DNA from: Candidatus Yanofskybacteria bacterium RIFCSPLOWO2_02_FULL_45_18
Lineage (GTDB): Bacteria; Patescibacteriota; Minisyncoccia; 2-02-FULL-40-12; GWA2-44-9
Direction: 5' to 3'
DNA: 58,478 bases
Assembly: GCA_001795795.1 (NCBI GenBank)
Contig: MGKV01000008.1
Location: forward strand, 1-58,478
Below are positions 26,909 to 43,118 of this stretch, in pieces (position 1 is the stretch's first letter; each line of letters begins with the position of its first letter). Under the pieces are notes generated by a model that was given only the letters and a program-made list of their open reading frames with translations, made no database searches and was not told where the DNA came from. The position numbers were made by a program, and so were the translations under genes.

Positions 26909-28216
26909 TTAGAGATTTTCCGTGAGATGAGATGCTAATTTTTCGCCGGGAAGGCGGATTTGCTTGGTCGTGTCGCGGTTGCGGACGGTGACGGTGTTGT
27001 CTTCAAGCGTTTGAAAATCCACGGTGATGCAAAAAGGTGTGCCGATCTCGTCCTGCGAGTAATAGCGTTTGCCGATGTTTCCGCGGTCGTCCCAGGCGAT
27101 GGGAACAATTGACGAGCTACCATTAACCAGTGACTTGTAGATTTCGCGAGCCTTGGCGACAAGGTCTGGTTTATTGGCGAGGAGCGGGAAAATGGCGGCT
27201 TTGTAGGGAGCGAGAGACGGTTTTAATTTCAAAATTTTTCTCTCCCCGTCTTCCGCATAGGTTTCACATAAAACCGCCAGCGCCGAACGGTCAACGCCCC
27301 AGGTTGGTTCAATTACATGGGGCCAATAACTGTCGCCGGTTTGCCCGTCCCTATACGGCGGCTGGCTGAAGTGATTTTTTAAGTCAAAGTCGGTGCGGTA
27401 GGCCAAGCCGTAGAGTTCTTTGTGGCCAAAGGGAAAGTCGTATTCAAAATCAATGGTGCGTTTGGAGTAATGCGCCCTCTCCCCTTCCGGAACTTCCAAC
27501 TCGTGGATATGAGCCAAGTCAAGGCCGATTGCTTCCATCCATGAGCGCATTTCTTCCCGCCACATATCAAAAACACTCTGCCAGTCGTTGTCGTCTTTGG
27601 GCGGAGCGATAAAATACTCTATTTCCATCTGCTCAAACTCGCGGGTGCGGAAGATAAAATTACCGGGAGTAATCTCGTTGCGGAAGGCCTTGCCGATCTG
27701 GGCGATGCCGAAGGGGACAGTTGTGCGTGAGGTGTCCAGAACATTTTTAAAGTCAACAAACATACCTTGCGCCGTTTCAGGGCGCAGATAGGCGATATTG
27801 GCTTTTTCCTCGGCCGGACCGATGAATGTTTTGAACATCAGGTTAAATTGCTTGGGTTCGGTGAAGACATCCTTCTTATCGCAGTTTGGACAGGCCTTAT
27901 CATTTTCAATCTGGTCGGCGCGAAATCGCTCATGGCAGTTTTTGCATTCCACCAGCTGGTCGGAAAAACCGGCCGAAAGATGGCCTGATGCCTCCCACAC
28001 CTTGGGATTCATAATTAAAGCGGCATCAAGGCCGACGATATCCTGCCGCTGATGGACAAAACGGCTCCACCAGAGCTTTTTGATATTATTCTTCAGCTCA
28101 ACGCCGAGTGGGCCGTAGTCCCACGAGTTGGCCAGTCCGCCATAAATCTCCGACCCGGGGAATATAAACCCCCTTCTTTTGCACAAACTTACGATTTTTT
28201 CTATTGAATCCGTCAT
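26909..28216 (-). CDS. glyQS: Glycine--tRNA ligase (alpha2 dimeric type)
   Basis: 435 aa. RRGFIFPGSEIYGGLANSWDYGPLG. Confidence 0.93.
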   Translation of the reverse strand: MTDSIEKIVSLCKRRGFIFPGSEIYGGLANSWDYGPLGVELKNNIKKLWWSRFVHQRQDIVGLDAALIMNPKVWEASGHLSAGFSDQLVECKNCHERFRADQIENDKACPNCDKKDVFTEPKQFNLMFKTFIGPAEEKANIAYLRPETAQGMFVDFKNVLDTSRTTVPFGIAQIGKAFRNEITPGNFIFRTREFEQMEIEYFIAPPKDDNDWQSVFDMWREEMRSWMEAIGLDLAHIHELEVPEGERAHYSKRTIDFEYDFPFGHKELYGLAYRTDFDLKNHFSQPPYRDGQTGDSYWPHVIEPTWGVDRSALAVLCETYAEDGERKILKLKPSLAPYKAAIFPLLANKPDLVAKAREIYKSLVNGSSSIVPIAWDDRGNIGKRYYSQDEIGTPFCITVDFQTLEDNTVTVRNRDTTKQIRLPGEKLASHLTENL

Positions 28217-28219
28217 AGA

Positions 28220-30031
28220 TTATTGAACTTTTCCCTCTTTGGGCCTGTCAATTAAATTATCCGAAGTAAGGTCACGCGCTTTTATCAGCAAATTTGCATT
28301 GGTAAAGCTGTCCGTGCCAGAGAATTGGACACCCTTTATTAATGTTATTTTATCCCCCATTTGCAAGCTTGAAGGCGTAGCGCCAATCTGGAAGGACGCT
28401 TCATATTTTTCTGAATTGATTCCGATGCCTTGCGGCAGATCATCTACGGCCCATGTAACAGTAGAGGTGTTGGGGTCAAAAACTAGGGTCGGCGCGCCGA
28501 CGGTGTCGGCCAGGTTTTTCCAGCTGATGCCCGTCGGAAGAATGCCGACCACCTTCGTGTCCCGAAGAGCGTTGCCTGGATTAGACAACTGCCAATGAAT
28601 GGTAAAAAGTGTTTCCTTGCCGACCTGCGGCGGCAAAGGGCCGCTTGAGCCGAATTGTGGATCATTATAATAGCCCAGTTGTCTTATTGTTGGTTTAGAG
28701 GTGATTTTGGTTATATTGCTGGCCGAGGTTGAAATTTCATCTGTCGGGAAATCAGATGGCACATTGATGGTGATTAACTGGGAGTCGGCTCTAACCGAGA
28801 ATTCGCGTCCGCTGTCCGTATTTTCCGGAAACGCAGTTTTGAGCTTAACGAAAAACCTGATTTCTCCCAAAGCGTTAGGTTGCAGATTGCCGAACAGCGG
28901 AACTGATCCCGAGTTCCAGGTTATTGTTTTGGTTGTGTCATTGAAAAAACCGCCTTGGGTATTAATGCTAGGGTAATCATACATATCGCCGGATAGTTTT
29001 ACGGTGAGGTTTAATCCGGAAAGACTGTAAGTAGAGATATTTTTGTATTTAATAATGTAGGTAATCTTTTCTCCCGGATTGGCTATGTAGTCCGTGTCGC
29101 CGTTAGCGGTAACAGCCAAACCTAACAATGGGCTGGAAATGACAGTATCAGAAAAGGCCTTTTCGTAAGGTATGTAGGTGTCCATAAGTTTTCTTTGCAG
29201 GTTGACGGTGATGGTTTTGGCGTCCCCCTCTCTGCCATTAAGAATGCCCTGAATGCTGATGCGTCCACGGCCGTCTTTTTTAACTTTCGCAATATCCCAA
29301 ACATTATTTCCCGAAGTTGGAGCCATATCAGCCGAAATGAAAGTGAAACCATCAGGGAAAGAAAACTCAAAGCGCAAGTTGTTAATTTCATTGTCAGATT
29401 CATTGCGATAATCAAGGATATAAGTCAACTTTTGTCCGCCGACAAAAGAGGGCGGAGCAACCAGAGATAGAGCTACGGGGGTTTTGGTTATTGTGGTGGA
29501 AACTTCTTCGGTTTTTTCAAATTGAGACTTGAAAGTTCCAGCTTTGAAAACGAGGTTTACTTTGGCTTTCTTGATGTCACCCCGATTACCCACAAGGAAT
29601 GCTTTTAATTCTTTTTCCTCCGACTGCCCCGCGTTCAAAGAATCAACAACAAAGGTATCGGTCTGGTCTTCCTGCAAAGCGCCGTCCTTGATAATAGCTG
29701 ACCCGTCAGGATAGAAAAATACAAAGCTTAAATTCTTGAGTGTAATATTGGTGTTGTTGGCATAGGTTACTTTATAAGAAACTTCGTCACCGGCGCTGGC
29801 TTCTGCCGGACCTTCAAGTTTAAGTTGGACATTCTTGTCGCTGAAAGACTGGCGGCTGAACCAAAAAGACAGAATGGCAATGATAAATAAAAGCAAAGCA
29901 ATTAAAATCAGCCAACGAGTCACGTGGCTACTTAAGCCGAGGATCTTTTGAGAAACATAAAATAGGGGCGATTTGCTCGCTTCGGGTACTGACGGCGCTT
30001 GAATTGGGGGAGGAATTATTCCGTTAACCAC
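28220..30031 (-). CDS. Membrane-anchored surface protein with repeated DUF11/CARDB-like beta-sandwich domains
   Basis: N-terminal TM helix, then about 4 repeats of the GxxVxYxVxYxNxxN...LxNL type. Confidence 0.55.
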   Translation of the reverse strand: MVNGIIPPPIQAPSVPEASKSPLFYVSQKILGLSSHVTRWLILIALLLFIIAILSFWFSRQSFSDKNVQLKLEGPAEASAGDEVSYKVTYANNTNITLKNLSFVFFYPDGSAIIKDGALQEDQTDTFVVDSLNAGQSEEKELKAFLVGNRGDIKKAKVNLVFKAGTFKSQFEKTEEVSTTITKTPVALSLVAPPSFVGGQKLTYILDYRNESDNEINNLRFEFSFPDGFTFISADMAPTSGNNVWDIAKVKKDGRGRISIQGILNGREGDAKTITVNLQRKLMDTYIPYEKAFSDTVISSPLLGLAVTANGDTDYIANPGEKITYIIKYKNISTYSLSGLNLTVKLSGDMYDYPSINTQGGFFNDTTKTITWNSGSVPLFGNLQPNALGEIRFFVKLKTAFPENTDSGREFSVRADSQLITINVPSDFPTDEISTSASNITKITSKPTIRQLGYYNDPQFGSSGPLPPQVGKETLFTIHWQLSNPGNALRDTKVVGILPTGISWKNLADTVGAPTLVFDPNTSTVTWAVDDLPQGIGINSEKYEASFQIGATPSSLQMGDKITLIKGVQFSGTDSFTNANLLIKARDLTSDNLIDRPKEGKVQ

Positions 30032-30045
30032 GATACCTTATTCTA

Positions 30046-30567
30046 TCAGATGCGGCCGTTTTTCAAAAGAGGCAACGAATGGAATTTAACATTGGCATGG
30101 TATTCAAAATATGGGCCGGGGTTAATAATGCTGGCTTCGTGGAAGTAACCCAGTATTTCCAGCAGTTTAATTTGCCGGCGCTTAAAAGTTGCCGCGTCAT
30201 ATCCGTTTTTATCAAGATTTTCCAGAGTTTCAACAAGAAATTTCCAGAGTATCGGATCGCTGTCATTTTCAAAAACAAGCTTGTCTATCGTCTCAAGAAA
30301 GAAGTATGCGGCGGCGATGCTTTTGTAGGATGACTTGAGGTTGCGATAAGAGTTTTCAACCTGGGCGGCGGAGATGATGGGCATGCCACGCCCCGAAATC
30401 AGCTCAAAATCAACCAAATTCAAAACATCAAGGTGCATGCCTTGAATGGAGCCTGGTTTTAAAACGCTTTTGGCGACCGCGGTTAATTTGCCGAACTCTT
30501 TTGTGTAGCAGGTAACCCACTGGTCGTATTCGTTGGTATCCTGTTTTTTGAGGATAATGGCGCGCAT
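30046..30567 (-). CDS. recO: DNA repair protein RecO (short form)
   Basis: Start set at MRAIILKKQDTNEYDQ. OB-fold N-terminus typical of RecO. The 40-codon upstream extension is rejected. Confidence 0.75.
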   Translation of the reverse strand: MRAIILKKQDTNEYDQWVTCYTKEFGKLTAVAKSVLKPGSIQGMHLDVLNLVDFELISGRGMPIISAAQVENSYRNLKSSYKSIAAAYFFLETIDKLVFENDSDPILWKFLVETLENLDKNGYDAATFKRRQIKLLEILGYFHEASIINPGPYFEYHANVKFHSLPLLKNGRI

Positions 30568-30806
30568 CGCGGAGTGGGCTCCCCGAAGTTGTCCGCGAGG
30601 GTTCCCATTTGTCAATATCCGTTCAAGCTCGCGAGATGGACAAATGGGATACGCGTAGGCAACGAAAAGGGAACTCTGTCTAAGCATAAAGTAAAAAATG
30701 AAAAATTGATGAACCGAAATTTTAGTCTAACATTGTACGGACAAAATCAAAAACCGCCCTGAACTTGTTGAAGGACGGTTTTTGATTTTGTCATTCCAGC
30801 CGCTGT

Positions 30807-31343
30807 TTAATCGCTTTGAGCCGCTGTTGGATCAACTATATTGAAAACCTCGCTTGATCCGGTATAACTTGAGCCACCGGTAGTCATAATTGCTTTGACC
30901 ACATAACTGCCGATGGGAAGAATGCTTAAAGTGCCGTTAGCGGAATACACCTTGCCCACTGTCCACAAGTAGGGTGTGTTGCCCGAACTGCAACGCTGAA
31001 TCCCCGACTGGCCGGCGATATTGCCCATGATGCGGCCCAAGATAGTAGTTCCGGTTGAGTCCCACAAACTCAAATTGACCACTGCCGTCTTTCTATTGGC
31101 TTTGCTCACATTCTGACTGCAATATCGGATATTTTTGATATTGCCCAGACGCCACTTGGAGGATGCGCTAGGTTTGTTGATCTTTATTATGGGCGCGCCG
31201 GCCGCTTCGCTTTCTTTCAATCCGGCCGAATAATTCTTCCATGCCCAATACCCTCCGGTCGCCGCCGCGGCGATTATTACGATTAATATGAGATGGGCAA
31301 AGCCCTTTTGTCTGCTCTGAACGGGATCGAATGACTTAGTCAT
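30807..31343 (-). CDS. N-terminally anchored small surface protein
   Basis: Start set at MTKSFDPVQSRQKG-FAHLILIVIIAAAATGGYWAWKNY. The anchor-coding DNA looks by eye ~90% identical to 32590..32660. Confidence 0.55.
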   Translation of the reverse strand: MTKSFDPVQSRQKGFAHLILIVIIAAAATGGYWAWKNYSAGLKESEAAGAPIIKINKPSASSKWRLGNIKNIRYCSQNVSKANRKTAVVNLSLWDSTGTTILGRIMGNIAGQSGIQRCSSGNTPYLWTVGKVYSANGTLSILPIGSYVVKAIMTTGGSSYTGSSEVFNIVDPTAAQSD

Positions 31344-31469
31344 CGTTTGTTCTCGTTGTCTAAGGGGGGGGCAAATTTTGCCGCCCGGACGCATAAACAA
31401 AAAGAGATTATAATACTTGTTTTCATGATACCTCTTTTTGACGGGACTTATTTATGTGGGTGTGGACAA

Positions 31470-31522
31470 CTACTTTTTGATGCCGACCCAGATTGGCATT
31501 TGCGGAGCGAGTTCAAGTTCTT
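31470..31522. repeat. 53-bp direct repeat, copy 1 (orphan copy of the ileS 3' end)
   Basis: Identical to 32872..32924: CTACTTTTTGATGCCGACCCAGATTGGCATTTGCGGAGCGAGTTCAAGTTCTT. Confidence 0.95.
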
Positions 31523-31570
31523 GCAAACTGCCAAAAGCCACAAAATTATTTACACTTTGTCAGGCCTCCT

Positions 31571-32686
31571 TTATTGTCCTGCCAATGTCTGAATCTCGAT
31601 TTCACTTAAGGCGCGGTTATATATCTGAACATCATCAAGGAGGCCGTTAAAACTTCTGACGGAAGAGTATTTGTCTCTACCAATGTTAAGATTCTCTGTA
31701 TTGTAGAGTATGCCATGGTAAGCGATGCCCTGCAGAACGCCATCAAGATAAAGTTTCATTTCCCCTCCTCCCACAGCAGAGTCCCATGTTCCCGCCACAT
31801 GATGCCATGCGCCCGTAGAGATTGTATTAGATGACTGAACCCGACTCCATGTGGGGGTGCCGGCGTTTCCTATATAAAAACTCAATTTTTGATCTCCCCC
31901 AAGACCGAGTAAATATCCCTTTAAATTTGTCGGTGAGCGGAAATGCTCAATAATGCCCGGGGAATTGGTCCAATTTGGACTGCCGCTATCAATCTTAATC
32001 CATGCCGAGAGTGTAAGAGCGGTTGTCGGTCTTAATAGTGCCGTATCCGCAACACTGACATAATCAGTGTTGGAGGGGTTGAGAAGAGTTATCGCGCCAT
32101 TATTATGACCAGCCGTCCACGGATTTGGAACGGTATTTGTGGGTGTACCATTGTGACCGTTTCCACTTGAATCATTGCCATTATTATCAAGTTTCCACCA
32201 GCCGACCAAAGACCTGTCTATGCGGAAGAAGTTATCGCTTGAATCTTTGCTGATGACGGTAGTGACTCCGGCATAGACGCTTACCAAAACGACATTGAAT
32301 TTATACGCTCCGTTTGGCAGGGTTGACACAGATGGAAGCGTCCAATTGTAAGTAAATTCGCTGGCAGTTCCGACACCAAGCGGATTATCAAAAATTTGAG
32401 TTGTCTGGCCATCTTTGTTTTCTACCGATCCTTTCCAGCGATATACCATTGGCGGAACGATGGTAATTGGCTGGTCTAGAGCCCACCGCAGGGTATATGA
32501 AACGCTTAATATTTCATTGCTATTATTCGGAGCGACCACATGAACCCGGGGAGCGCCAGCCGCCTTAGGCCTTGCTATCTCGGCGCCGTAATTCTTCCAT
32601 GCCCAATACCCCCCTATCGCCGCCGCGGCGATTATTATGATTAATATGAGGTGGACAATTCCGCGTTGAGAACGCATATGGCGCAT
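31571..32686 (-). CDS. N-terminally anchored surface protein with LamG/concanavalin-A-like lectin domain
   Basis: LVGWWKLDNNGNDSSGNGHNG...LSAWIK...WHHVAGTW...MKLYLDGVL...FNGLLDDVQIYNRALS is a classic Laminin_G_3 pattern. Confidence 0.75.
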   Translation of the reverse strand: MRHMRSQRGIVHLILIIIIAAAAIGGYWAWKNYGAEIARPKAAGAPRVHVVAPNNSNEILSVSYTLRWALDQPITIVPPMVYRWKGSVENKDGQTTQIFDNPLGVGTASEFTYNWTLPSVSTLPNGAYKFNVVLVSVYAGVTTVISKDSSDNFFRIDRSLVGWWKLDNNGNDSSGNGHNGTPTNTVPNPWTAGHNNGAITLLNPSNTDYVSVADTALLRPTTALTLSAWIKIDSGSPNWTNSPGIIEHFRSPTNLKGYLLGLGGDQKLSFYIGNAGTPTWSRVQSSNTISTGAWHHVAGTWDSAVGGGEMKLYLDGVLQGIAYHGILYNTENLNIGRDKYSSVRSFNGLLDDVQIYNRALSEIEIQTLAGQ

Positions 32687-32871: not shown

Positions 32872-32924
32872 CTACTTTTTGATGCCGACCCAGATTGGCA
32901 TTTGCGGAGCGAGTTCAAGTTCTT
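32872..32924. repeat. 53-bp direct repeat, copy 2 (ileS stop codon plus last ~17 codons)
   Basis: Identical to 31470..31522. Confidence 0.95.
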
Positions 32925-35900
32925 TTTCCACATCATATTTCTTTTTGTCGTGAGGGCCGTTGATGAAATCGGAGAGCAGTGTGTCCCCCTCTATCATATC
33001 AGACCACTTCAAGATAGCGGCGGAGAGCTCTTTGCTGTCGCTGTGCCACTGGCAGTAAATTTTTTGGTCTAGCTTATATCCAGCTTCTTTACGCATATCC
33101 TGTATCTGGCGCATCAATTCGCGCGCATAACCCTCGGCGGCCAGTTCTGCCGTAACTTCCACATCTAATTCTACTAATGGTCTGGTCGCTTGTCGCTTGT
33201 CGCTGGTCGCATAGCTTATCCCCCTCACATTCAGTTCTTCCTTGATAAGTTCTTCCAAATCATTTTCCAGTTTATCGCTGGCTATCGCGGCGGATTTAAG
33301 TGGTTGGCGGACTTTTATCTGCTTTTCTTTTCTGATTGCCAGACCGGCCGTAATTATTTCCCTGATGTGGGACATTTTTTCTTCTAGTTTGATATTGCGG
33401 GTTTTCTTTTGCAGCTTCGGCCAGTCATGGAGATGGATGCTTTCGGTTGAGGGTTTCGCGCCAATATGCAGGCGCGTATGAATATCTTCGGCCGTGAAAG
33501 GAATAAACGGTGCGAGGATTTTAGCTAGTTCCAGAAGCAATACCCGCAAAAGCGGCAGGGCCTCTTTGCGTTTGCGCGAACGGCGTAGCCACCACTGGGA
33601 GAAGTCATCAACGACAAATTTCTCTATGGCCCGCGAAGCGGTTGTGGGATCATATGCGTCCAGTTTTTCAGTTACTTCCGACAGTAACTCTTGGAATCGC
33701 GAGATAATCCACTTATCCAGCAAATTTTTCACTGCTCCCAAGTTCTCGGAGGTAATTTCCGTCTTGTCGCTTGTCGCTTGTCGCTTGTCGCCAGATTGAT
33801 ACAATTCATAAAACCTGACGCAATTTTCCAGCGTCATGGTAAAACCCTTGAGTTGTTCCCGCGCGGCTTGAATGGAGATGGATTTGAAATCGCCCGGTTC
33901 ATTCAGCGTGTAAAGATACCAGCGGGTGGCATCTGCGCCGACTTGGTCCATGATTTCATCAGGCGTGATGACATTGCCGATGGACTTTGACATTTTTTTG
34001 CCTTTTTCATCCAAAGCCAATCCGAGAGCCATCACATTTTTATAAGGCGCGTCTTTTCCAAGGAGCGTTGAGACGGCAAGAAGCGTATAGAACCAGCCAC
34101 GGGTCTGGTCAATGCCTTCCACGATGAAATCCGCCGGAAATTGTTTCTTGAATATGTCTTTGTTCTCAAACGGCCAATGCCATTGGGCGTAAGGCATAGC
34201 GCCGGAATCAAACCAAACGTCGGCTATGTCGGGTATTCTTTTCATTTCCGCCCGGCATTTGCCGCATCTTAAGACGATGCTGTCAATATAGGGACGATGA
34301 AGGTCAAGTTCGCCCAGCTCATTGCGGGGAATCTGAATCCAGCTGAGTTTTTTCAGTTCCGCAAAAGACGGATACCAATCCTCTCCCCTCTCTCTGCGAG
34401 CCAGCACCTCGTTATCGGTTCTGCCTTCAGCTATCTGGGCAAGAAGCCAAAGCGGGTCGCCGTGGCTGACGATGAGGATCTTTTTATTGTGGTAAGTTGA
34501 TTCAATCTCCTGCATAAAATCCATTATTCTTTGGCGAACGTCGTTCCAGCTCTCCCCTCCGTCCTCCTTGAATTCAAAATTCTTTTTCACATCTTTGAAC
34601 GGACAGGCGCTGTGCTTTTTGCCCTCGCAGGCAAAACCATGGCGAATTTCAGTCAATCGGTTATCAATCTTCGCTTCCCGATGGAGCATTTTACCCGCGA
34701 TTTCGGCAGTTTCCCGCGTGCGCAAAAACGGAGAGCAGTAAATGGCGTCAACGTTTTCACCGCGGGCAAAGTTGCCGACAGCGTTTTCAACAATCATTTT
34801 CCCCTCGGTTGTCAGGTGATACCCGTCGCTATTTTTTTCGGAATTAATGATAATGTCATTTTTCTCGTCGCGCTCGCTAATGCCATGGCGCATGAGATAA
34901 TATGTATTTTTGCGCCCGACCGCCTGTTTGGCTATTTCTTTAACCGCTCCGACTGTTCTGGCATGGCCGCATTTTACGCACTGCCAAATCGGAAGTGGCG
35001 TGCCCCAATAGCGTTCTCGCGATATTGCCCAGTCCTTAAGTTCTTTCAGCCATTGTCCAAAGCGCCCCTCCTTTATGTGGGCGGGCACCCAGTTTATTTT
35101 TCCGTTATTTGTAATCAACTCATCTTTGACGGCGGTGGTTTTAATGAACCATGAGTTTTTGGCGTAATAAAGCAAAGCCGTTCCGCAGCGCCAGCAAAAA
35201 GGATACTCATGCTCGTATGGCTCTACCTTGAAAAGATTGCCGTTCGCCCGAAGATGATCCAGTATTTTTTCTTCTGTTTCCGCGTTTTTAACGTAAAGAC
35301 CATCAAAACCGCCACCCACTCCGGTGAACCGCCCGCCCTCGTCTACTGTGTGGATCTTCGGCAATCCGACCGCCGTTCCCAGCTTATAGTCGTCATCGCC
35401 GTACATCACCGCCGTATGGACGATACCCGTTCCTTCGGAAGTTGAAACGAAGTCGGCGGCATAGACCTTGTGTGACTGCGGCGATTTAAACGCTTCAACG
35501 TCAAACAGCGACTCATATTCTAGACCGATCAGATCAGAACCGGAAATAGTATTATGTATTATGTATTCCGTATTAAGGACTTTGGAAACCAGCTCCTCCG
35601 CCAAAATATATCTCTCGTCTTTACCCTTGATACTTACTACCTGATACTTAATACTCTCTCCGACTGCGAGAGCCACGTTGCCCGGCAATGTCCACGGCGT
35701 TGTTGTCCAAGCCAATAAATAAACGTCCCCTTCCGAAACTTTGCGCTTTGCGCTTTGAACTTTAAACTTAATTATGGCCGATATATCGGTTATGGTGCGA
35801 TATCCTTGCGCAACTTCGTGAGATGAAAGAGCCGTGCCACAGCGAGTGCAAAAAGGCACGACCTTGTGGGCGTGGTAGAAAAGTTTTTTATCCCATATTT

Positions 35901-36378
35901 TTTTGAATATCCGCCAAAGCGACTCAATGTATGGGTTCTCGTAAGTCACGTAAGGATGGCCCATATCTATCCAGAAGCCCATTCGTTCGGTCATTTCTTC
36001 CCACTCTTTTTTGTATTTCCAAACGCTTTCTTTGGCTTTTTTGTTGAATTCTGCGATTCCGTACTCTTCAATGTCTTTCTTGCTTTTGAATCCCAGCTGT
36101 TTTTCCACTTCAAGCTCAACCGGCAAGCCGTGGGTATCCCAGCCGGCTTTTCTTAATACAAAAAATCCCCGCATGGTTTTGTAGCGTCCATAGAGGTCTT
36201 TGTATATTCGGGTCAAAAAATGGCCGATATGGGGCAGGCCGTTCGCGGTGGGCGGCCCCTCAAAGAAAACAAATCTTTTCTTGCCGCGCCTTTGCTCCAG
36301 ACTCTTTTGGAAAATCTTTCCTTTCTCCCAAAAATCCAGTATTTCCTTCTCTTTTTTTTGAAAATCAAGGGTTGCCAT
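32872..36378 (-). CDS. ileS: Isoleucine--tRNA ligase (type 2) with an inserted histidine-phosphatase domain
   Basis: 1168 aa. PPTANGLPHIGH (HIGH), KMSKS, CP1 editing domain (WTTTPWTLPGN). Extra block at about residues 489-688 (nt 34315-34914). Confidence 0.95.
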   Translation of the reverse strand: MATLDFQKKEKEILDFWEKGKIFQKSLEQRRGKKRFVFFEGPPTANGLPHIGHFLTRIYKDLYGRYKTMRGFFVLRKAGWDTHGLPVELEVEKQLGFKSKKDIEEYGIAEFNKKAKESVWKYKKEWEEMTERMGFWIDMGHPYVTYENPYIESLWRIFKKIWDKKLFYHAHKVVPFCTRCGTALSSHEVAQGYRTITDISAIIKFKVQSAKRKVSEGDVYLLAWTTTPWTLPGNVALAVGESIKYQVVSIKGKDERYILAEELVSKVLNTEYIIHNTISGSDLIGLEYESLFDVEAFKSPQSHKVYAADFVSTSEGTGIVHTAVMYGDDDYKLGTAVGLPKIHTVDEGGRFTGVGGGFDGLYVKNAETEEKILDHLRANGNLFKVEPYEHEYPFCWRCGTALLYYAKNSWFIKTTAVKDELITNNGKINWVPAHIKEGRFGQWLKELKDWAISRERYWGTPLPIWQCVKCGHARTVGAVKEIAKQAVGRKNTYYLMRHGISERDEKNDIIINSEKNSDGYHLTTEGKMIVENAVGNFARGENVDAIYCSPFLRTRETAEIAGKMLHREAKIDNRLTEIRHGFACEGKKHSACPFKDVKKNFEFKEDGGESWNDVRQRIMDFMQEIESTYHNKKILIVSHGDPLWLLAQIAEGRTDNEVLARRERGEDWYPSFAELKKLSWIQIPRNELGELDLHRPYIDSIVLRCGKCRAEMKRIPDIADVWFDSGAMPYAQWHWPFENKDIFKKQFPADFIVEGIDQTRGWFYTLLAVSTLLGKDAPYKNVMALGLALDEKGKKMSKSIGNVITPDEIMDQVGADATRWYLYTLNEPGDFKSISIQAAREQLKGFTMTLENCVRFYELYQSGDKRQATSDKTEITSENLGAVKNLLDKWIISRFQELLSEVTEKLDAYDPTTASRAIEKFVVDDFSQWWLRRSRKRKEALPLLRVLLLELAKILAPFIPFTAEDIHTRLHIGAKPSTESIHLHDWPKLQKKTRNIKLEEKMSHIREIITAGLAIRKEKQIKVRQPLKSAAIASDKLENDLEELIKEELNVRGISYATSDKRQATRPLVELDVEVTAELAAEGYARELMRQIQDMRKEAGYKLDQKIYCQWHSDSKELSAAILKWSDMIEGDTLLSDFINGPHDKKKYDVEKELELAPQMPIWVGIKK
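33183..33210. repeat. 7-nt-period tandem array inside ileS (CGACAAG family)
   Basis: TGGTCGC TTGTCGC TTGTCGC TGGTCGC. Encodes ATSDKRQATRP. Confidence 0.8.
33763..33790. repeat. 7-nt-period tandem array inside ileS (4 perfect CTTGTCG units)
   Basis: CTTGTCG x4. Encodes GDKRQATSDKT. Confidence 0.85.
34315..34914 (-). other. Histidine phosphatase (PGAM/His_Phos_1-like) domain inserted in ileS
   Basis: YLMRHGISE (RHG), LTTEGKMIVENAV...VDAIYCSPFLRTRETAEI, LTEIRHG, GESWNDVRQRI, ILIVSHGDP. Confidence 0.75.
35737..35771. repeat. 7-nt-period tandem array inside ileS (GCGCAAA family, opposite orientation)
   Basis: AACTTTG CGCTTTG CGCTTTG AACTTTA AACTTAA. Encodes KFKVQSAKRKVS. Confidence 0.8.
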
Positions 36379-39307: not shown

Positions 39308-41647
39308 ATGAATGAGGACGTTGAGAAAATAAAAAAATATGTGCGGGCGGCAAATTATATCACCGCCGCCCAGATATACCTTAAGGATAATTTTTTGCTT
39401 GAACGCAAGCTGTCGTTTGACGACATCAAGCCGCGTCTTTTGGGTCATTGGGGCACCTGTCCGGGTATAAATTTTATTTATGCCAACTTAAATTACCTCG
39501 TCACAAAACACCGGCTGGATATGATGTTTGTTCTTGGCCCGGGCCACGGTTTTCCGGCGCTTCAAGCCAATTTATTTATGGAAGGTACATTGGGTAAGTT
39601 CTATCCAAATGCCAGCCAGAACGAAGCCGGTCTGGGTTATGTTTGCAAGAATTTCAGCTGGCCGGGCGGATTCCCCAGCCATTCCAACCCGGGAACGCCG
39701 GGAGTGATCCTTGAAGGCGGAGAGTTGGGTTATGCTCTCTCAACTTCTTACGGTGCTGTGCTGGATAATCCGGACTTAATTGTGGCTTGTATGATTGGCG
39801 ACGGCGAAGCCGAAACCGGCCCCACTGCCACGGCTTGGCATCTGAACAAATTCATCAATCCAGCGAGCAGTGGCGCTGTTCTGCCGATTTTGCACCTCAA
39901 CGGCTACAAAATTTCGGGGCCGACAATTTTGGGGCGCATGTCCAATCGCGAACTGAAAGCGCTTTTTACTGGCTATGGCTATAAGCCGTATATTGTGGAG
40001 GGCAAAAATGTCTATGAAAAAATGCCTGCCGCGCTGGAAGAATGCTATCAACTGATAAAAACAATCCAGAGTAATGCTCGCGGCGGCGATACTCCCAGTC
40101 TGCTACCGATGCCGATGATTATTCTTAAAACCCCCAAAGGGTGGACCGGCATTAAAAAACTGAACGGCAAAAAAATTGAGGACAATTTTGCTTCGCATCA
40201 GGTGGTAGCGCCCAATGCCAAGACCGAACGGGCGGAACTTCGGGCGGTTGAAAAATGGCTCCGCTCCTACAAGATTGAAGAACTTTTTGACAAAGACGGC
40301 GGTCTTGCCACGGATGTAAGAGAATTAATTCCGGAACCGGGCTATTGTTTAGGAGAGAATAAGCATACGCTTGGCGGACCGGTTTCTAAAGATTTAGTCC
40401 TGCCTCCGGCGGAAAAATTTGCCGAGGACGCTTCTCAACCCGGCATTATCGGTTCTTCCAGTATGCGCCGCTCCGGCCTTTATCTTAAAGAAGTTTTTCA
40501 GCTTAACGCCGAAAATAAAAATTTCCGTCTGATGTCGCCCGATGAAACATATTCCAACAAACTGGATGCAATTTTTGAGACAACCTCGCGGGCTTTTATG
40601 CTGCCGGTAAAAGAGTGGGATAAGGACTTAAGTCCGAACGGCCGAGTAATGGAGATGCTAAGCGAACACTCTCTGCAAGGCCTGATGCAGGGTTATGTTC
40701 TGACTGGCCGGCATGCCGTCTTCGCTTCCTATGAGGCGTTTATCCCGATTGTAACCAGTATGGTTGACCAGTATGCCAAATTTTTGAGCCAAGCCCGCGA
40801 GGTGACATGGCGCGGCGCCGTCCCCTCTCTTAATTATATTCTGACTTCATCCGGCTGGCGGCAGGAGCACAATGGTTTTTCGCACCAGAATCCTGGTTTT
40901 ATCAATGACATGCTCCAACGGCAGGGCAATTTTACAAAGGTCTACATGCCGCCCGACGGGAATAGCGCTTTGGCTGTGTTGAAAAAATGCCTTGAATCAA
41001 AGAATGGCATCAATGTCATTGTTGCCGGCAAGACACTTGAACCAAGATGGCTGACGCCGGAGCTGTCCCAGAAGGAACTTCAGCAGGGGTTGATGGTCTG
41101 GGATTTTGCCAGTGATGCTGAACCGGATGTTGTGGTTTCGGCCGCGGGCGATTATATGACCAAAGAGGCGTTGGCGGCGATTGACACAGTTAAAAAAGAC
41201 GCGCCCGAAATAAAAATAAGGTTTGTGAATATTATGGAACTTTCATCCTTGGGCATCGGAGCGGGCAAGCGTCAGGATATTGATTTTGACAACTATTTTA
41301 CTAGCGACAAACCGGTTATTTTTAATTTTCACGGTTATCCGGATACGCTGAAACAAAATCTTTTCCACCATTGCCACGGCCACCAGAGGTTTTTTGTCCA
41401 CGGCTATATTGAAAACGGTTCTACCACCACGCCTTTTGATATGCAAGTGCGCAACAAAACCAGCCGTTATCATCTAGCCATGGAGATTGTTGCTTCGGCC
41501 GCTGAAAAGAATGTTATCGGTTCCGAAAAAAGCAAGGCATTGATTGAACGATATGACGGTGTGTTGAAAAAACACGCGGAATATATAAAACAAAACGGGT
41601 TAGATATGCCGGAAATAGAAAATTGGACATTTTCGCTAAAAAAATGA
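39308..41647 (+). CDS. xfp: Xylulose-5-phosphate/fructose-6-phosphate phosphoketolase
   Basis: 779 aa. RLLGHWGTCPGINFIYANLN, GPGHG, and TPP-binding GDGEAETG. Confidence 0.93.
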   Translation: MNEDVEKIKKYVRAANYITAAQIYLKDNFLLERKLSFDDIKPRLLGHWGTCPGINFIYANLNYLVTKHRLDMMFVLGPGHGFPALQANLFMEGTLGKFYPNASQNEAGLGYVCKNFSWPGGFPSHSNPGTPGVILEGGELGYALSTSYGAVLDNPDLIVACMIGDGEAETGPTATAWHLNKFINPASSGAVLPILHLNGYKISGPTILGRMSNRELKALFTGYGYKPYIVEGKNVYEKMPAALEECYQLIKTIQSNARGGDTPSLLPMPMIILKTPKGWTGIKKLNGKKIEDNFASHQVVAPNAKTERAELRAVEKWLRSYKIEELFDKDGGLATDVRELIPEPGYCLGENKHTLGGPVSKDLVLPPAEKFAEDASQPGIIGSSSMRRSGLYLKEVFQLNAENKNFRLMSPDETYSNKLDAIFETTSRAFMLPVKEWDKDLSPNGRVMEMLSEHSLQGLMQGYVLTGRHAVFASYEAFIPIVTSMVDQYAKFLSQAREVTWRGAVPSLNYILTSSGWRQEHNGFSHQNPGFINDMLQRQGNFTKVYMPPDGNSALAVLKKCLESKNGINVIVAGKTLEPRWLTPELSQKELQQGLMVWDFASDAEPDVVVSAAGDYMTKEALAAIDTVKKDAPEIKIRFVNIMELSSLGIGAGKRQDIDFDNYFTSDKPVIFNFHGYPDTLKQNLFHHCHGHQRFFVHGYIENGSTTTPFDMQVRNKTSRYHLAMEIVASAAEKNVIGSEKSKALIERYDGVLKKHAEYIKQNGLDMPEIENWTFSLKK

Positions 41648-43043: not shown

Positions 43044-43046
43044 ATG

Positions 43047-43118
43047 TTGCGGGGGCGGGATTCGAACCCGCGACCTTCAGGTTATGAGCCTGACGAGCTG
43101 CCGCTGCTCTACCCCGCG
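43047..43118 (-). tRNA. tRNA-Met (CAT), initiator-like (C1-A72 mismatch), no encoded CCA
   Basis: CGCGGGG TA GAGC AGCGGCA GCTC G TCAGG CTCATAA CCTGA AGGTC GCGGG TTCGAAT CCCGC CCCCGCA A. Close to E. coli tRNA-fMet. Confidence 0.85.

Follow-up and report, generated by a model that had tools for sequence, protein, structure and literature searches.

Few enzymes have been studied as much, or are as conserved, as the aminoacyl-tRNA synthetases, and extra catalytic domains in their core are very rare besides the editing domain. Why, then, does an isoleucyl-tRNA synthetase (IleRS) of a small-genomed bacterium carry what looks like a complete phosphatase between the two halves of its catalytic fold? 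The gene in question, ileS, belongs to Candidatus Yanofskybacteria bacterium RIFCSPLOWO2_02_FULL_45_18 (Patescibacteriota) and lies on contig MGKV01000008.1; the whole stretch analyzed here, positions 1 to 58,478 of that contig (58,478 nucleotides), is referred to as the window. The gene runs from 32872..36378 on the minus strand, stop codon included, as a single uninterrupted open reading frame (ORF) for a type-2 (eukaryote-like) IleRS of 1168 amino acids with an internal domain of the histidine phosphatase superfamily. The initial annotation, made from the letters of the window, had proposed an intact phosphatase domain inserted in a complete, probably working IleRS, and this core proposal held on every test run, as far as sequence can tell. 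On the same footing, the domain would be an active phosphomonoesterase that is functionally coupled to class-Ia aminoacylation and embedded in the housekeeping IleRS, a reading with somewhat better than even chances of being right.

The presence of a phosphatase-superfamily block in the gene is clear from profile searches. In the 1168-amino-acid protein, Pfam finds tRNA-synt_1 (E = 7e-122), Anticodon_1 at residues 888-1028, and DUF5915 at residues 1014-1143, and between the two tRNA-synt_1 halves it places His_Phos_1 (PF00300) at residues 494-654, with E = 2.2e-27 and 96 bits against a gathering score of 21.7 bits. When the 200-residue block is searched by itself, the His_Phos_1 match has E = 7.5e-29 (about 101 bits). 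The boundaries come from aligning the protein to the Priestia megaterium IleRS2 (PmIleRS2, PDB 8C8V), in which residues 7-486 match chain residues 11-478 and residues 691-1073 match chain residues 486-865. This leaves 204 residues (487-690; 34309..34920, minus strand) in place of a 7-residue turn of 8C8V. The block had been put at about residues 489-688; that location stands, with both limits moved two residues outward, and the seven residues of 8C8V bear out the statement that only a short linker normally separates the two CxxC halves. The turn that is replaced is the tip of the zinc-knuckle hairpin, which follows the WGTPLPIW strand and precedes the DVWFDSG strand, with C467 and C470 on one side and C705 and C708 on the other.

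The protein can thus be read in three parts, all on the minus strand. Residues 1-486 (34921..36378) comprise the first Rossmann half, the CP1 editing domain, and the first CxxC; the inserted block consists of a linker, the His_Phos_1 core found by Pfam (residues 494-654; 34417..34899), and a second linker; and residues 691-1168 (32875..34308) comprise the second Rossmann half, the anticodon-binding domain, and the type-2 C-terminal domain, which continues beyond the part aligned to 8C8V. The two halves of the zinc knuckle are CVKC (C467/C470; 34969..34980), in which C467 is invariant and C470 at least 90% conserved, and CGKC (C705/C708; 34255..34266), which is also at least 90% conserved. An antisense ORF of 207 amino acids (34531-35154, plus strand) lies wholly within the ileS coding region; it is a mechanical product of ORF calling without support as a gene.

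The synthetase into which the domain is inserted appears to be complete. The whole protein scores 868.5 bits on the IleRS equivalog TIGR00392, above the cutoff of 621.4, although the insert splits the match. Its first half contains HIGH (residues 50-53), WTTTPWTLP (224-232), GTGIVHTAVMYGDDDY (316-331), WGTPLPIW (458-465), and CVKC (467-470), and its second half contains CGKC (705-708), DVWFDSG (720-726), and KMSKS (795-799). Residues H53, K795, S797, and K798, the CP1 editing motifs, and WGTPLPIW are invariant in 62 orthologues, in agreement with the earlier statement that HIGH, KMSKS, and the CP1 motifs are intact. The CP1 region also aligns to the editing-domain structures 1WK8 and 1UE0, with the Thr-rich and GTG..H..D motifs present. 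The type-2 class is indicated by DUF5915 and by the best PDB matches, which are PmIleRS2 and the Thermus thermophilus IleRS, while type-1 enzymes score far lower. The protein did not reach the cutoffs for the MupA and MupB mupirocin-resistance IleRS (NF000257 and NF000258; 821 and 811 bits vs 1900), nor that for the IleRS with an acetyltransferase (GNAT) domain (NF040702; 308 bits vs 1999), and Pfam finds no acetyltransferase domain in it. A predicted model of the full-length protein (pLDDT 84.9, pTM 0.75) superposes on PmIleRS2 (TMt 0.82) and on the T. thermophilus structure 1ILE (TMt 0.91). In that model both linkers of the insert have a pLDDT of 88-93; the ordered linkers, together with the pTM of 0.75, suggest a phosphatase domain that is docked rather than loosely tethered. 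The surroundings of the gene in the window, with smpB, ileS, recO, a DUF11/CLIPPER protein, and a class-II synthetase, are those of genomes with an ordinary ileS. Since the neighborhood is the same, orthology with the sole housekeeping gene is supported, and this synteny with insert-less ileS backs the conclusion that the gene is the organism's housekeeping type-2 IleRS. Its synthetase part would be expected to activate isoleucine, transfer it to the 2'-OH of A76, and edit through CP1 in the normal way.

The insert, too, has the features of a working enzyme. The motifs quoted for it earlier are all present and in the order given: RHG (497-499), SPFLRTRET (549-557), LTEIRHG (575-581), GESWNDV (608-614), and SHGDP (638-642). 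In an alignment of 120 fused IleRS orthologues, the proposed Arg/His/Arg/Glu/His catalytic set is invariant. It consists of Arg497 and His498 of RHG (34885..34890, minus strand, as are the rest), of which His498 is the predicted phospho-accepting nucleophile and which are invariant in the free-standing relatives as well; Arg553 (34720..34722), the second arginine of the phosphate pocket; Glu577 (34648..34650), the predicted general acid, which is Glu or Asp in the free-standing relatives; and His639 (34462..34464), the second catalytic histidine. Ser549 and Arg617 are also 100% conserved. Across the same orthologues, mean identity to the window protein is 44% for the insert compared to 58-65% for the synthetase body. 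In a wider set of single fused domains, R-H-R-E-H is found in 163 of 171 and R-H-R-D-H in another 5, and every complete tandem or extra copy in IleRS has an intact catalytic pentad. An invariant pentad in a domain that has otherwise drifted to 44% identity reads as the signature of selection on chemistry. A further feature of the insert is a pair of cysteines, C584 and C592 (34603-34629, minus strand), which lie with H580 (34639-34641) in its cap or specificity loop; these residues are 82-83% conserved in the 120 close orthologues and absent from the free-standing relatives, and they may form a metal site or a disulfide.

The kind of phosphatase can be narrowed down by its fold and by what it fails to match. 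An AlphaFold2 model of the domain (pLDDT 86.7, pTM 0.85), in which confidence is low only in two specificity loops, was compared with solved structures by Foldseek. Its neighbors, at a probability of 1.0 and TM of about 0.72-0.75, are PspA, a mycobacterial hydrolase, PhoE, GpgP, CobC, and the riboflavin-pathway HFP. PspA is the best structural neighbor and has an E-I-x-H-G motif in common with the insert, whereas GESWNDV and SHGDPLWLL are signature motifs particular to the insert's own subfamily. The model has the expected alpha/beta/alpha fold, and the insert is, by this prediction, a phosphatase-type member of branch 1 that belongs to none of the characterized equivalog families. The earlier label of "PGAM-type" therefore stands at the level of the superfamily and falls at the level of the enzyme, since the domain is of the phosphatase and not the mutase type. 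For example, the cofactor-dependent phosphoglycerate mutase (dPGM) models are far below cutoff (dPGM_arch 69-74 bits vs 225; TIGR01258 20 vs 81.7), the insert has about 190 amino acids compared to about 230-250 for the mutases, and dPGM structures superpose poorly (rmsd 7-8 A). The cutoffs for the PspA phosphoserine phosphatase (NF045917; 46-50 bits vs 350) and for the CobC NCBIfam model (58-63 bits vs 163) were missed as well. The same is true of the phosphohistidine phosphatase SixA (TIGR00249; 27-34 bits vs 74.5), which is a minimal domain of about 155 amino acids and for which the match covers the N-terminal half only.

How widespread is this arrangement? A word-indexed search with the insert alone returned only fragments (P0052 and P0079) and missed the fused orthologues, so rarity would have been wrongly inferred; a search with the full-length protein corrected this. 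It found an identical protein from another source (P0081) and 119 further IleRS with 55-63% identity, and PF00300 occurs together with tRNA-synt_1 in all 120 of these closest homologues, whose source names include Candidatus Yanofskybacteria, Taylorbacteria, Paceibacterota, and Pacebacteria. A scan of genomes, one per species, with the peptide ILIVSHGDP gave 211 genomes, the best 80 of which, all from different assemblies, were classified. The domain is inside ileS in 64 of the 80, and in 60 of those 64 the N-terminal part, the insert, and the C-terminal part are in one frame, with identity of the N-terminal part of IleRS to that of the window ranging from 74% down to 38%. Another 13 genomes have a separate phosphatase gene directly upstream of ileS, at a spacing of -3 to 87 nucleotides with one at 640, and the remaining 3 have no ileS nearby, one of them being at a contig end and not evaluable. 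The domain is thus in or beside ileS in 77 of the 79 evaluable genomes and unlinked in 2. The architecture is, judging from these sequences, old and lineage-wide in Paceibacteria-type Patescibacteria and the standard IleRS of a large part of them. Many third-party records of metagenome-assembled genomes (MAGs) labeled "uncultured Candidatus Saccharibacteria bacterium" (loci L010, L013, L017-L019, and others) have an IleRS 60-74% identical to the Yanofskybacteria type and the same synteny; that name was probably applied generically or in error.

The closest relatives of the insert are free-standing proteins of about 190 amino acids from Patescibacteria, which are 35-43% identical to it over the whole length and share the GESWNDV and ILIVSHGDPLWLLEG signature motifs. 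All four that were inspected on long contigs (P0007, P0004, P0033, and P0031) lie in the order argS, phosphatase, ileS, recO, next to an insert-less ileS of 938-946 amino acids, with 2-57 nucleotides between phosphatase and ileS or an overlap of 20. In one such locus (L001), TIGR00392 gives the gene downstream of the phosphatase 851 bits. Fused genomes often have argS directly next to the fused ileS, without a separate phosphatase gene (L050, L074, L077, L063, and L017). The phosphatase subfamily thus appears as either an operon partner of ileS or a part of it, which is a classical fusion and neighborhood signal of functional linkage. The domain would descend from, or share an origin with, the free-standing gene upstream of ileS. 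In a rough distance tree without support values, the free-standing and inserted forms interleave, and either state may have come first; the only usable result of that tree is that the first and second copies of tandem domains are old paralogues.

Capture of this domain by synthetases seems to have occurred more than once. A profile search for the insert family among 1.84 billion representatives gave 805 clusters at E <= 1e-30; of the best 150, 146 could be classified, into 85 free-standing proteins, 53 with IleRS segments, 1 fusion to ArgRS, and 7 longer phosphatase-only proteins, tandem doubles included. Some IleRS have two copies in tandem in the zinc knuckle (P0225, P0244, and P0248), another has one copy there and one at the equivalent of window residues 864-887 (P0237), another lacks a copy at the knuckle and has them at 731-747 and 864-887 instead (P0265), and yet another has copies at about 709 and 750 (P0231). 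The loops at 731-747 and 864-887 correspond to window positions 34138-34188 and 33718-33789, and these alternative insertion sites coincide with low-confidence loops of the window model (733-747 and 866-872). The ArgRS case is a protein of 689 amino acids with a C-terminal phosphatase of the same subfamily (P0214), a single representative that could be a true fusion or an artefact of sequencing or of a lost stop codon; argS and the phosphatase gene are 1 nucleotide apart in locus L002.

A more distant case is found in valyl-tRNA synthetase (ValRS). One protein from the search (P0201) is a ValRS by score (411 bits on valS vs 199 on ileS) with at least four His_Phos copies, and 71 of its 120 best ValRS matches carry one to three such domains. 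These ValRS (P0347-P0464) come mostly from Gracilibacteria and Peregrinibacteria, on contigs of up to 1.37 Mb, and their phosphatase block ends about 18 residues ahead of the D-T-W-F-S-S strand, in the loop equivalent to the IleRS site. The domains have a median identity of about 24% to the window insert, and the full pentad is present in 58 of 85 copies; about 20 of the 85 have lost the acid residue and 9 of the 85 the second histidine as well, with the Arg-His-Arg pocket kept in some. From these sequences, the ValRS case looks like a parallel acquisition by a sister enzyme in another class of Patescibacteria.

What might the domain do? In the preferred picture, a complete branch-1 histidine phosphatase sits as a graft at the tip of the zinc knuckle, a hairpin flanked by the WGTPLPIW strand and by DVWFDSG, the strand that binds the amino acid. 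Enzymes of this superfamily hydrolyze terminal phosphates through a phospho-histidine intermediate. In the insert, Arg497, Arg553, and His639 would hold the terminal phosphate, His498 would attack it to form the phospho-histidine, and Glu577 would protonate the leaving group before water frees the phosphate. The DVWFDSG strand of class-I synthetases lines the amino-acid pocket, and because the host hairpin directly precedes this strand, the domain is, by analogy, probably near the mouth of the synthetic site. The phosphatase would then act in cis beside that site, and its substrate would be some phosphorylated species tied to aminoacylation by class-Ia enzymes. Taken together, the operon partnership, the fusion, the copies in other loops, and the parallel in ValRS argue that a phosphatase activity is wanted right beside class-Ia aminoacylation. 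Coupling of phosphatase and aminoacylation in some form, for which we infer the enzymatic activity and the action in cis, has chances that range from a little above even to reasonably good.

The substrate is more speculative. The favored candidate, which we infer and hold to be improbable when taken singly, is a terminal 3'(2')-phosphate or pyrophosphate on the acceptor end of tRNA; class-I enzymes use the 2'-OH, and editing by IleRS and ValRS needs the 3'-OH. An adenine-nucleotide or pyrophosphate by-product comes next and is a shade less probable, and a phosphorylated residue in the KMSKS region is a long shot. A more specific proposal is that an accessory phosphatase activity of class-Ia synthetases (IleRS and ValRS), acting in cis on a phosphorylated synthetase ligand, evolved in Patescibacteria, with the 3'-phosphorylated or pyrophosphorylated tRNA end as the likeliest target and a phosphorylated active-site loop as another; this is tentative and more probably wrong than right. 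If it were true, repair or de-blocking would be coupled directly to charging, as a third built-in quality-control or maintenance function beside the synthetic and editing sites.

Other explanations must be weighed against an active, coupled phosphatase. The a priori oddity of the architecture, and nothing more, speaks for an artefact such as a chimeric assembly, two genes joined by a frameshift, or an intein-like element that the mature protein no longer contains. The same in-frame architecture recurs in 60 independent assemblies; these stem from many projects and include IleRS identities as low as 38%. This excludes the chimera that had been named as a danger to the initial annotation, and together with a GC content that continues evenly through the insert (0.48-0.51) it also rules out a frameshift. 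The identical protein P0081 is on record from another source, Pfam finds no Hint or intein family, there is no terminal His-Asn, and the junctions (...AKQA|VGRKN... and ...NELGE|LDLHRP...) have no conserved Cys, Ser, or Thr at either splice position. The chance of an artefact is therefore negligible. The domain could instead be a non-catalytic module, that is, a structural brace, a surface that binds tRNA or phosphate, or a sensor of a phosphometabolite that tunes IleRS. Some ValRS copies that lost the Glu and the second His while keeping the Arg-His-Arg phosphate pocket would suit such a role, as would the arrays of two to four domains, which resemble avidity more than catalysis, and the ordered linkers of the model. 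In the IleRS lineage, however, the five catalytic residues are invariant, in every tandem copy as well, and a module without chemistry is unlikely there. More doubtful still is a protein phosphatase acting in cis, which would make the enzyme self-repairing: if a HipA-type toxin kinase, for instance, phosphorylated a serine of the KMSKS loop or its surroundings, the domain would strip off the inhibitory group. HipA and HipT phosphorylate class-I synthetases at the KMSKS loop, and the histidine phosphatase superfamily includes the protein phosphatases SixA, PGAM5, and Sts-1. All the target enzymes seen here are class I, and the insertion sites (487-690, about 731-747, and about 864-887) flank KMSKS in the sequence. 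On the other hand, no kinase turned up, although no kinase search was made; the nearest relatives are small-molecule enzymes, with SixA well below its cutoff; and a trait that is both constitutive and lineage-wide is better explained by a housekeeping need than by defense against a sporadic toxin.

The alternative with the most weight, and still an improbable one, is that a housekeeping phosphatase has hitch-hiked: a PspA- or PhoE-like neighboring gene would have been captured and kept for its own activity, with the fusion guaranteeing its expression and no link to aminoacylation. Several observations speak for it, weigh against functional coupling, or do both. The closest solved relatives in sequence and fold (PspA, PhoE, GpgP, CobC, and HFP) are small-molecule phosphatases whose caps are about as large, which also counts against an RNA or protein substrate. 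For the inserted domains the median pI is 6.4, close to neutral, which does not favor direct binding of RNA; as a hint of RNA binding, charge is uninformative, as the free-standing forms are basic, as are their neighbors, and the inserted forms neutral. Sister lineages have the domain as a functioning protein of its own, and the argS-ileS-recO block is itself syntenic across genomes, gene order in the region being generally conserved, so adjacency alone is weak evidence. A distant free-standing clade (P0063) lies among unrelated genes without linkage to any synthetase, one relative (P0071) has lost its adjacency to ileS, and a Moranbacteria member has kept argS, followed by a NUDIX gene; the linkage to ileS is, on the gene orders seen, specific to the closest subfamily. 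Also, the losses in ValRS mean that catalysis is not always required in the parallel system. Against hitch-hiking stand the 77 of 79 evaluable genomes with the domain in or next to ileS and its repeated entry at several IleRS loops, at the equivalent loop of ValRS (from a different subfamily, at 24% identity), and maybe in ArgRS. Such recurrence on class-Ia synthetases is hard to attribute to chance, and an active phosphatase coupled to aminoacylation remains the preferred reading.

The significance of the domain lies in where it is found. An apparently active phosphatase is a fixed part of an essential IleRS across a large, deeply diverging lineage of ultra-small, host-dependent bacteria with reduced genomes. 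Its study could reveal a new maintenance step for tRNA or synthetase, a new regulatory connection of translation to phosphate or energy metabolism, or a defense against toxins that act by phosphorylating the translation machinery. There is a practical side as well, since automated pipelines that reconstruct the sparse metabolism of Patescibacteria may list the insert among the "phosphoglycerate mutase-family" genes.

The other genes around ileS in the window are as follows. Downstream, on the minus strand, are a LamG/concanavalin-like protein (31571-32686), recO (30046..30687), which was recognized by Pfam RecO_N and RecO_C and by tblastn with the RecO of locus L002 and serves as the downstream marker of the shared syntenic block, the DUF11/CLIPPER protein (28220-30031), the class-II synthetase (26909-28216), and, also within 26909-32686, a 197-amino-acid ORF without assignment. 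The order recO, CLIPPER, class-II synthetase is common to genomes with the unfused arrangement. Neither a second copy of the phosphatase nor argS was found in the window. Near ileS, on the plus strand, is a full-length phosphoketolase (39308-41647; XFP_N, XFP, and XFP_C; E = 5e-140); the genome, though otherwise reduced, thus encodes this enzyme of central carbon metabolism. On the minus strand at 43046-43118 lies a tRNA gene whose anticodon is CAT; its product may be a tRNA-Met, of the initiator or the elongator type, or else the precursor of a lysidine-modified tRNA-Ile2 that would be chargeable by this IleRS.

Compared to known systems, the host enzyme is conventional and the insert is not. 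Bacterial type-2 IleRS (PmIleRS2, 8C8U and 8C8V; T. thermophilus, 1ILE) have the same domain order, HIGH and KMSKS, CP1 motifs, two CxxC...CxxC zinc sites, and C-terminal domain, and PmIleRS2 matches the window protein with a phmmer E of 1.6e-249 and, together with 1ILE, a TMt of 0.82-0.91; no solved IleRS, however, has a domain at the site of the 204-residue block, where a 7-residue turn is found instead. The branch-1 phosphatases PspA (4IJ5), PhoE/YhfR (1H2E and 1EBB), GpgP Rv2419c (4QIH), CobC (6E4B), and HFP (9MMH) have the fold, the size of about 190-210 amino acids, and the catalytic residues of the insert, but they are only 16-25% identical to it and are free-standing, whereas the insert is embedded in a synthetase. 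The free-standing phosphatases of Patescibacteria (P0001, P0004, P0007, P0031, and P0033), labeled "histidine phosphatase family protein", are closer, with the same signature motifs, catalytic residues, and linkage to ileS, and differ in being separate, basic proteins of about 190 amino acids, with Asp as the acid in about half and without the Cys584/Cys592 pair.

A precedent for an extra catalytic domain within IleRS exists in NF040702 (ileS_w_GNAT), but that domain is a GNAT and not a phosphatase, and from the coordinates of the hidden Markov model (HMM) it is placed within the CP1/editing region, at about 285-447 of the profile. The ValRS of Gracilibacteria and Peregrinibacteria (P0347, P0349, P0353, and P0201) have the same kind of domain, in variable copy number, in the loop between the WGxPIP and DxWFxS strands, and they differ in host enzyme, bacterial class, and phosphatase subfamily, in lacking the zinc knuckle, and in the partial loss of catalytic residues in some copies. 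Full-text searches of the literature turned up no account of an IleRS or ValRS that carries a phosphatase, and a 2026 survey of 96,219 IleRS sequences annotates canonical domains only. The earlier claim that no such IleRS has been described thus agrees with the literature found, but the architecture is widespread and already in public databases. There the sequences go by generic names, "class I tRNA ligase family protein" for example, and the novelty lies in recognizing the domain and its context.

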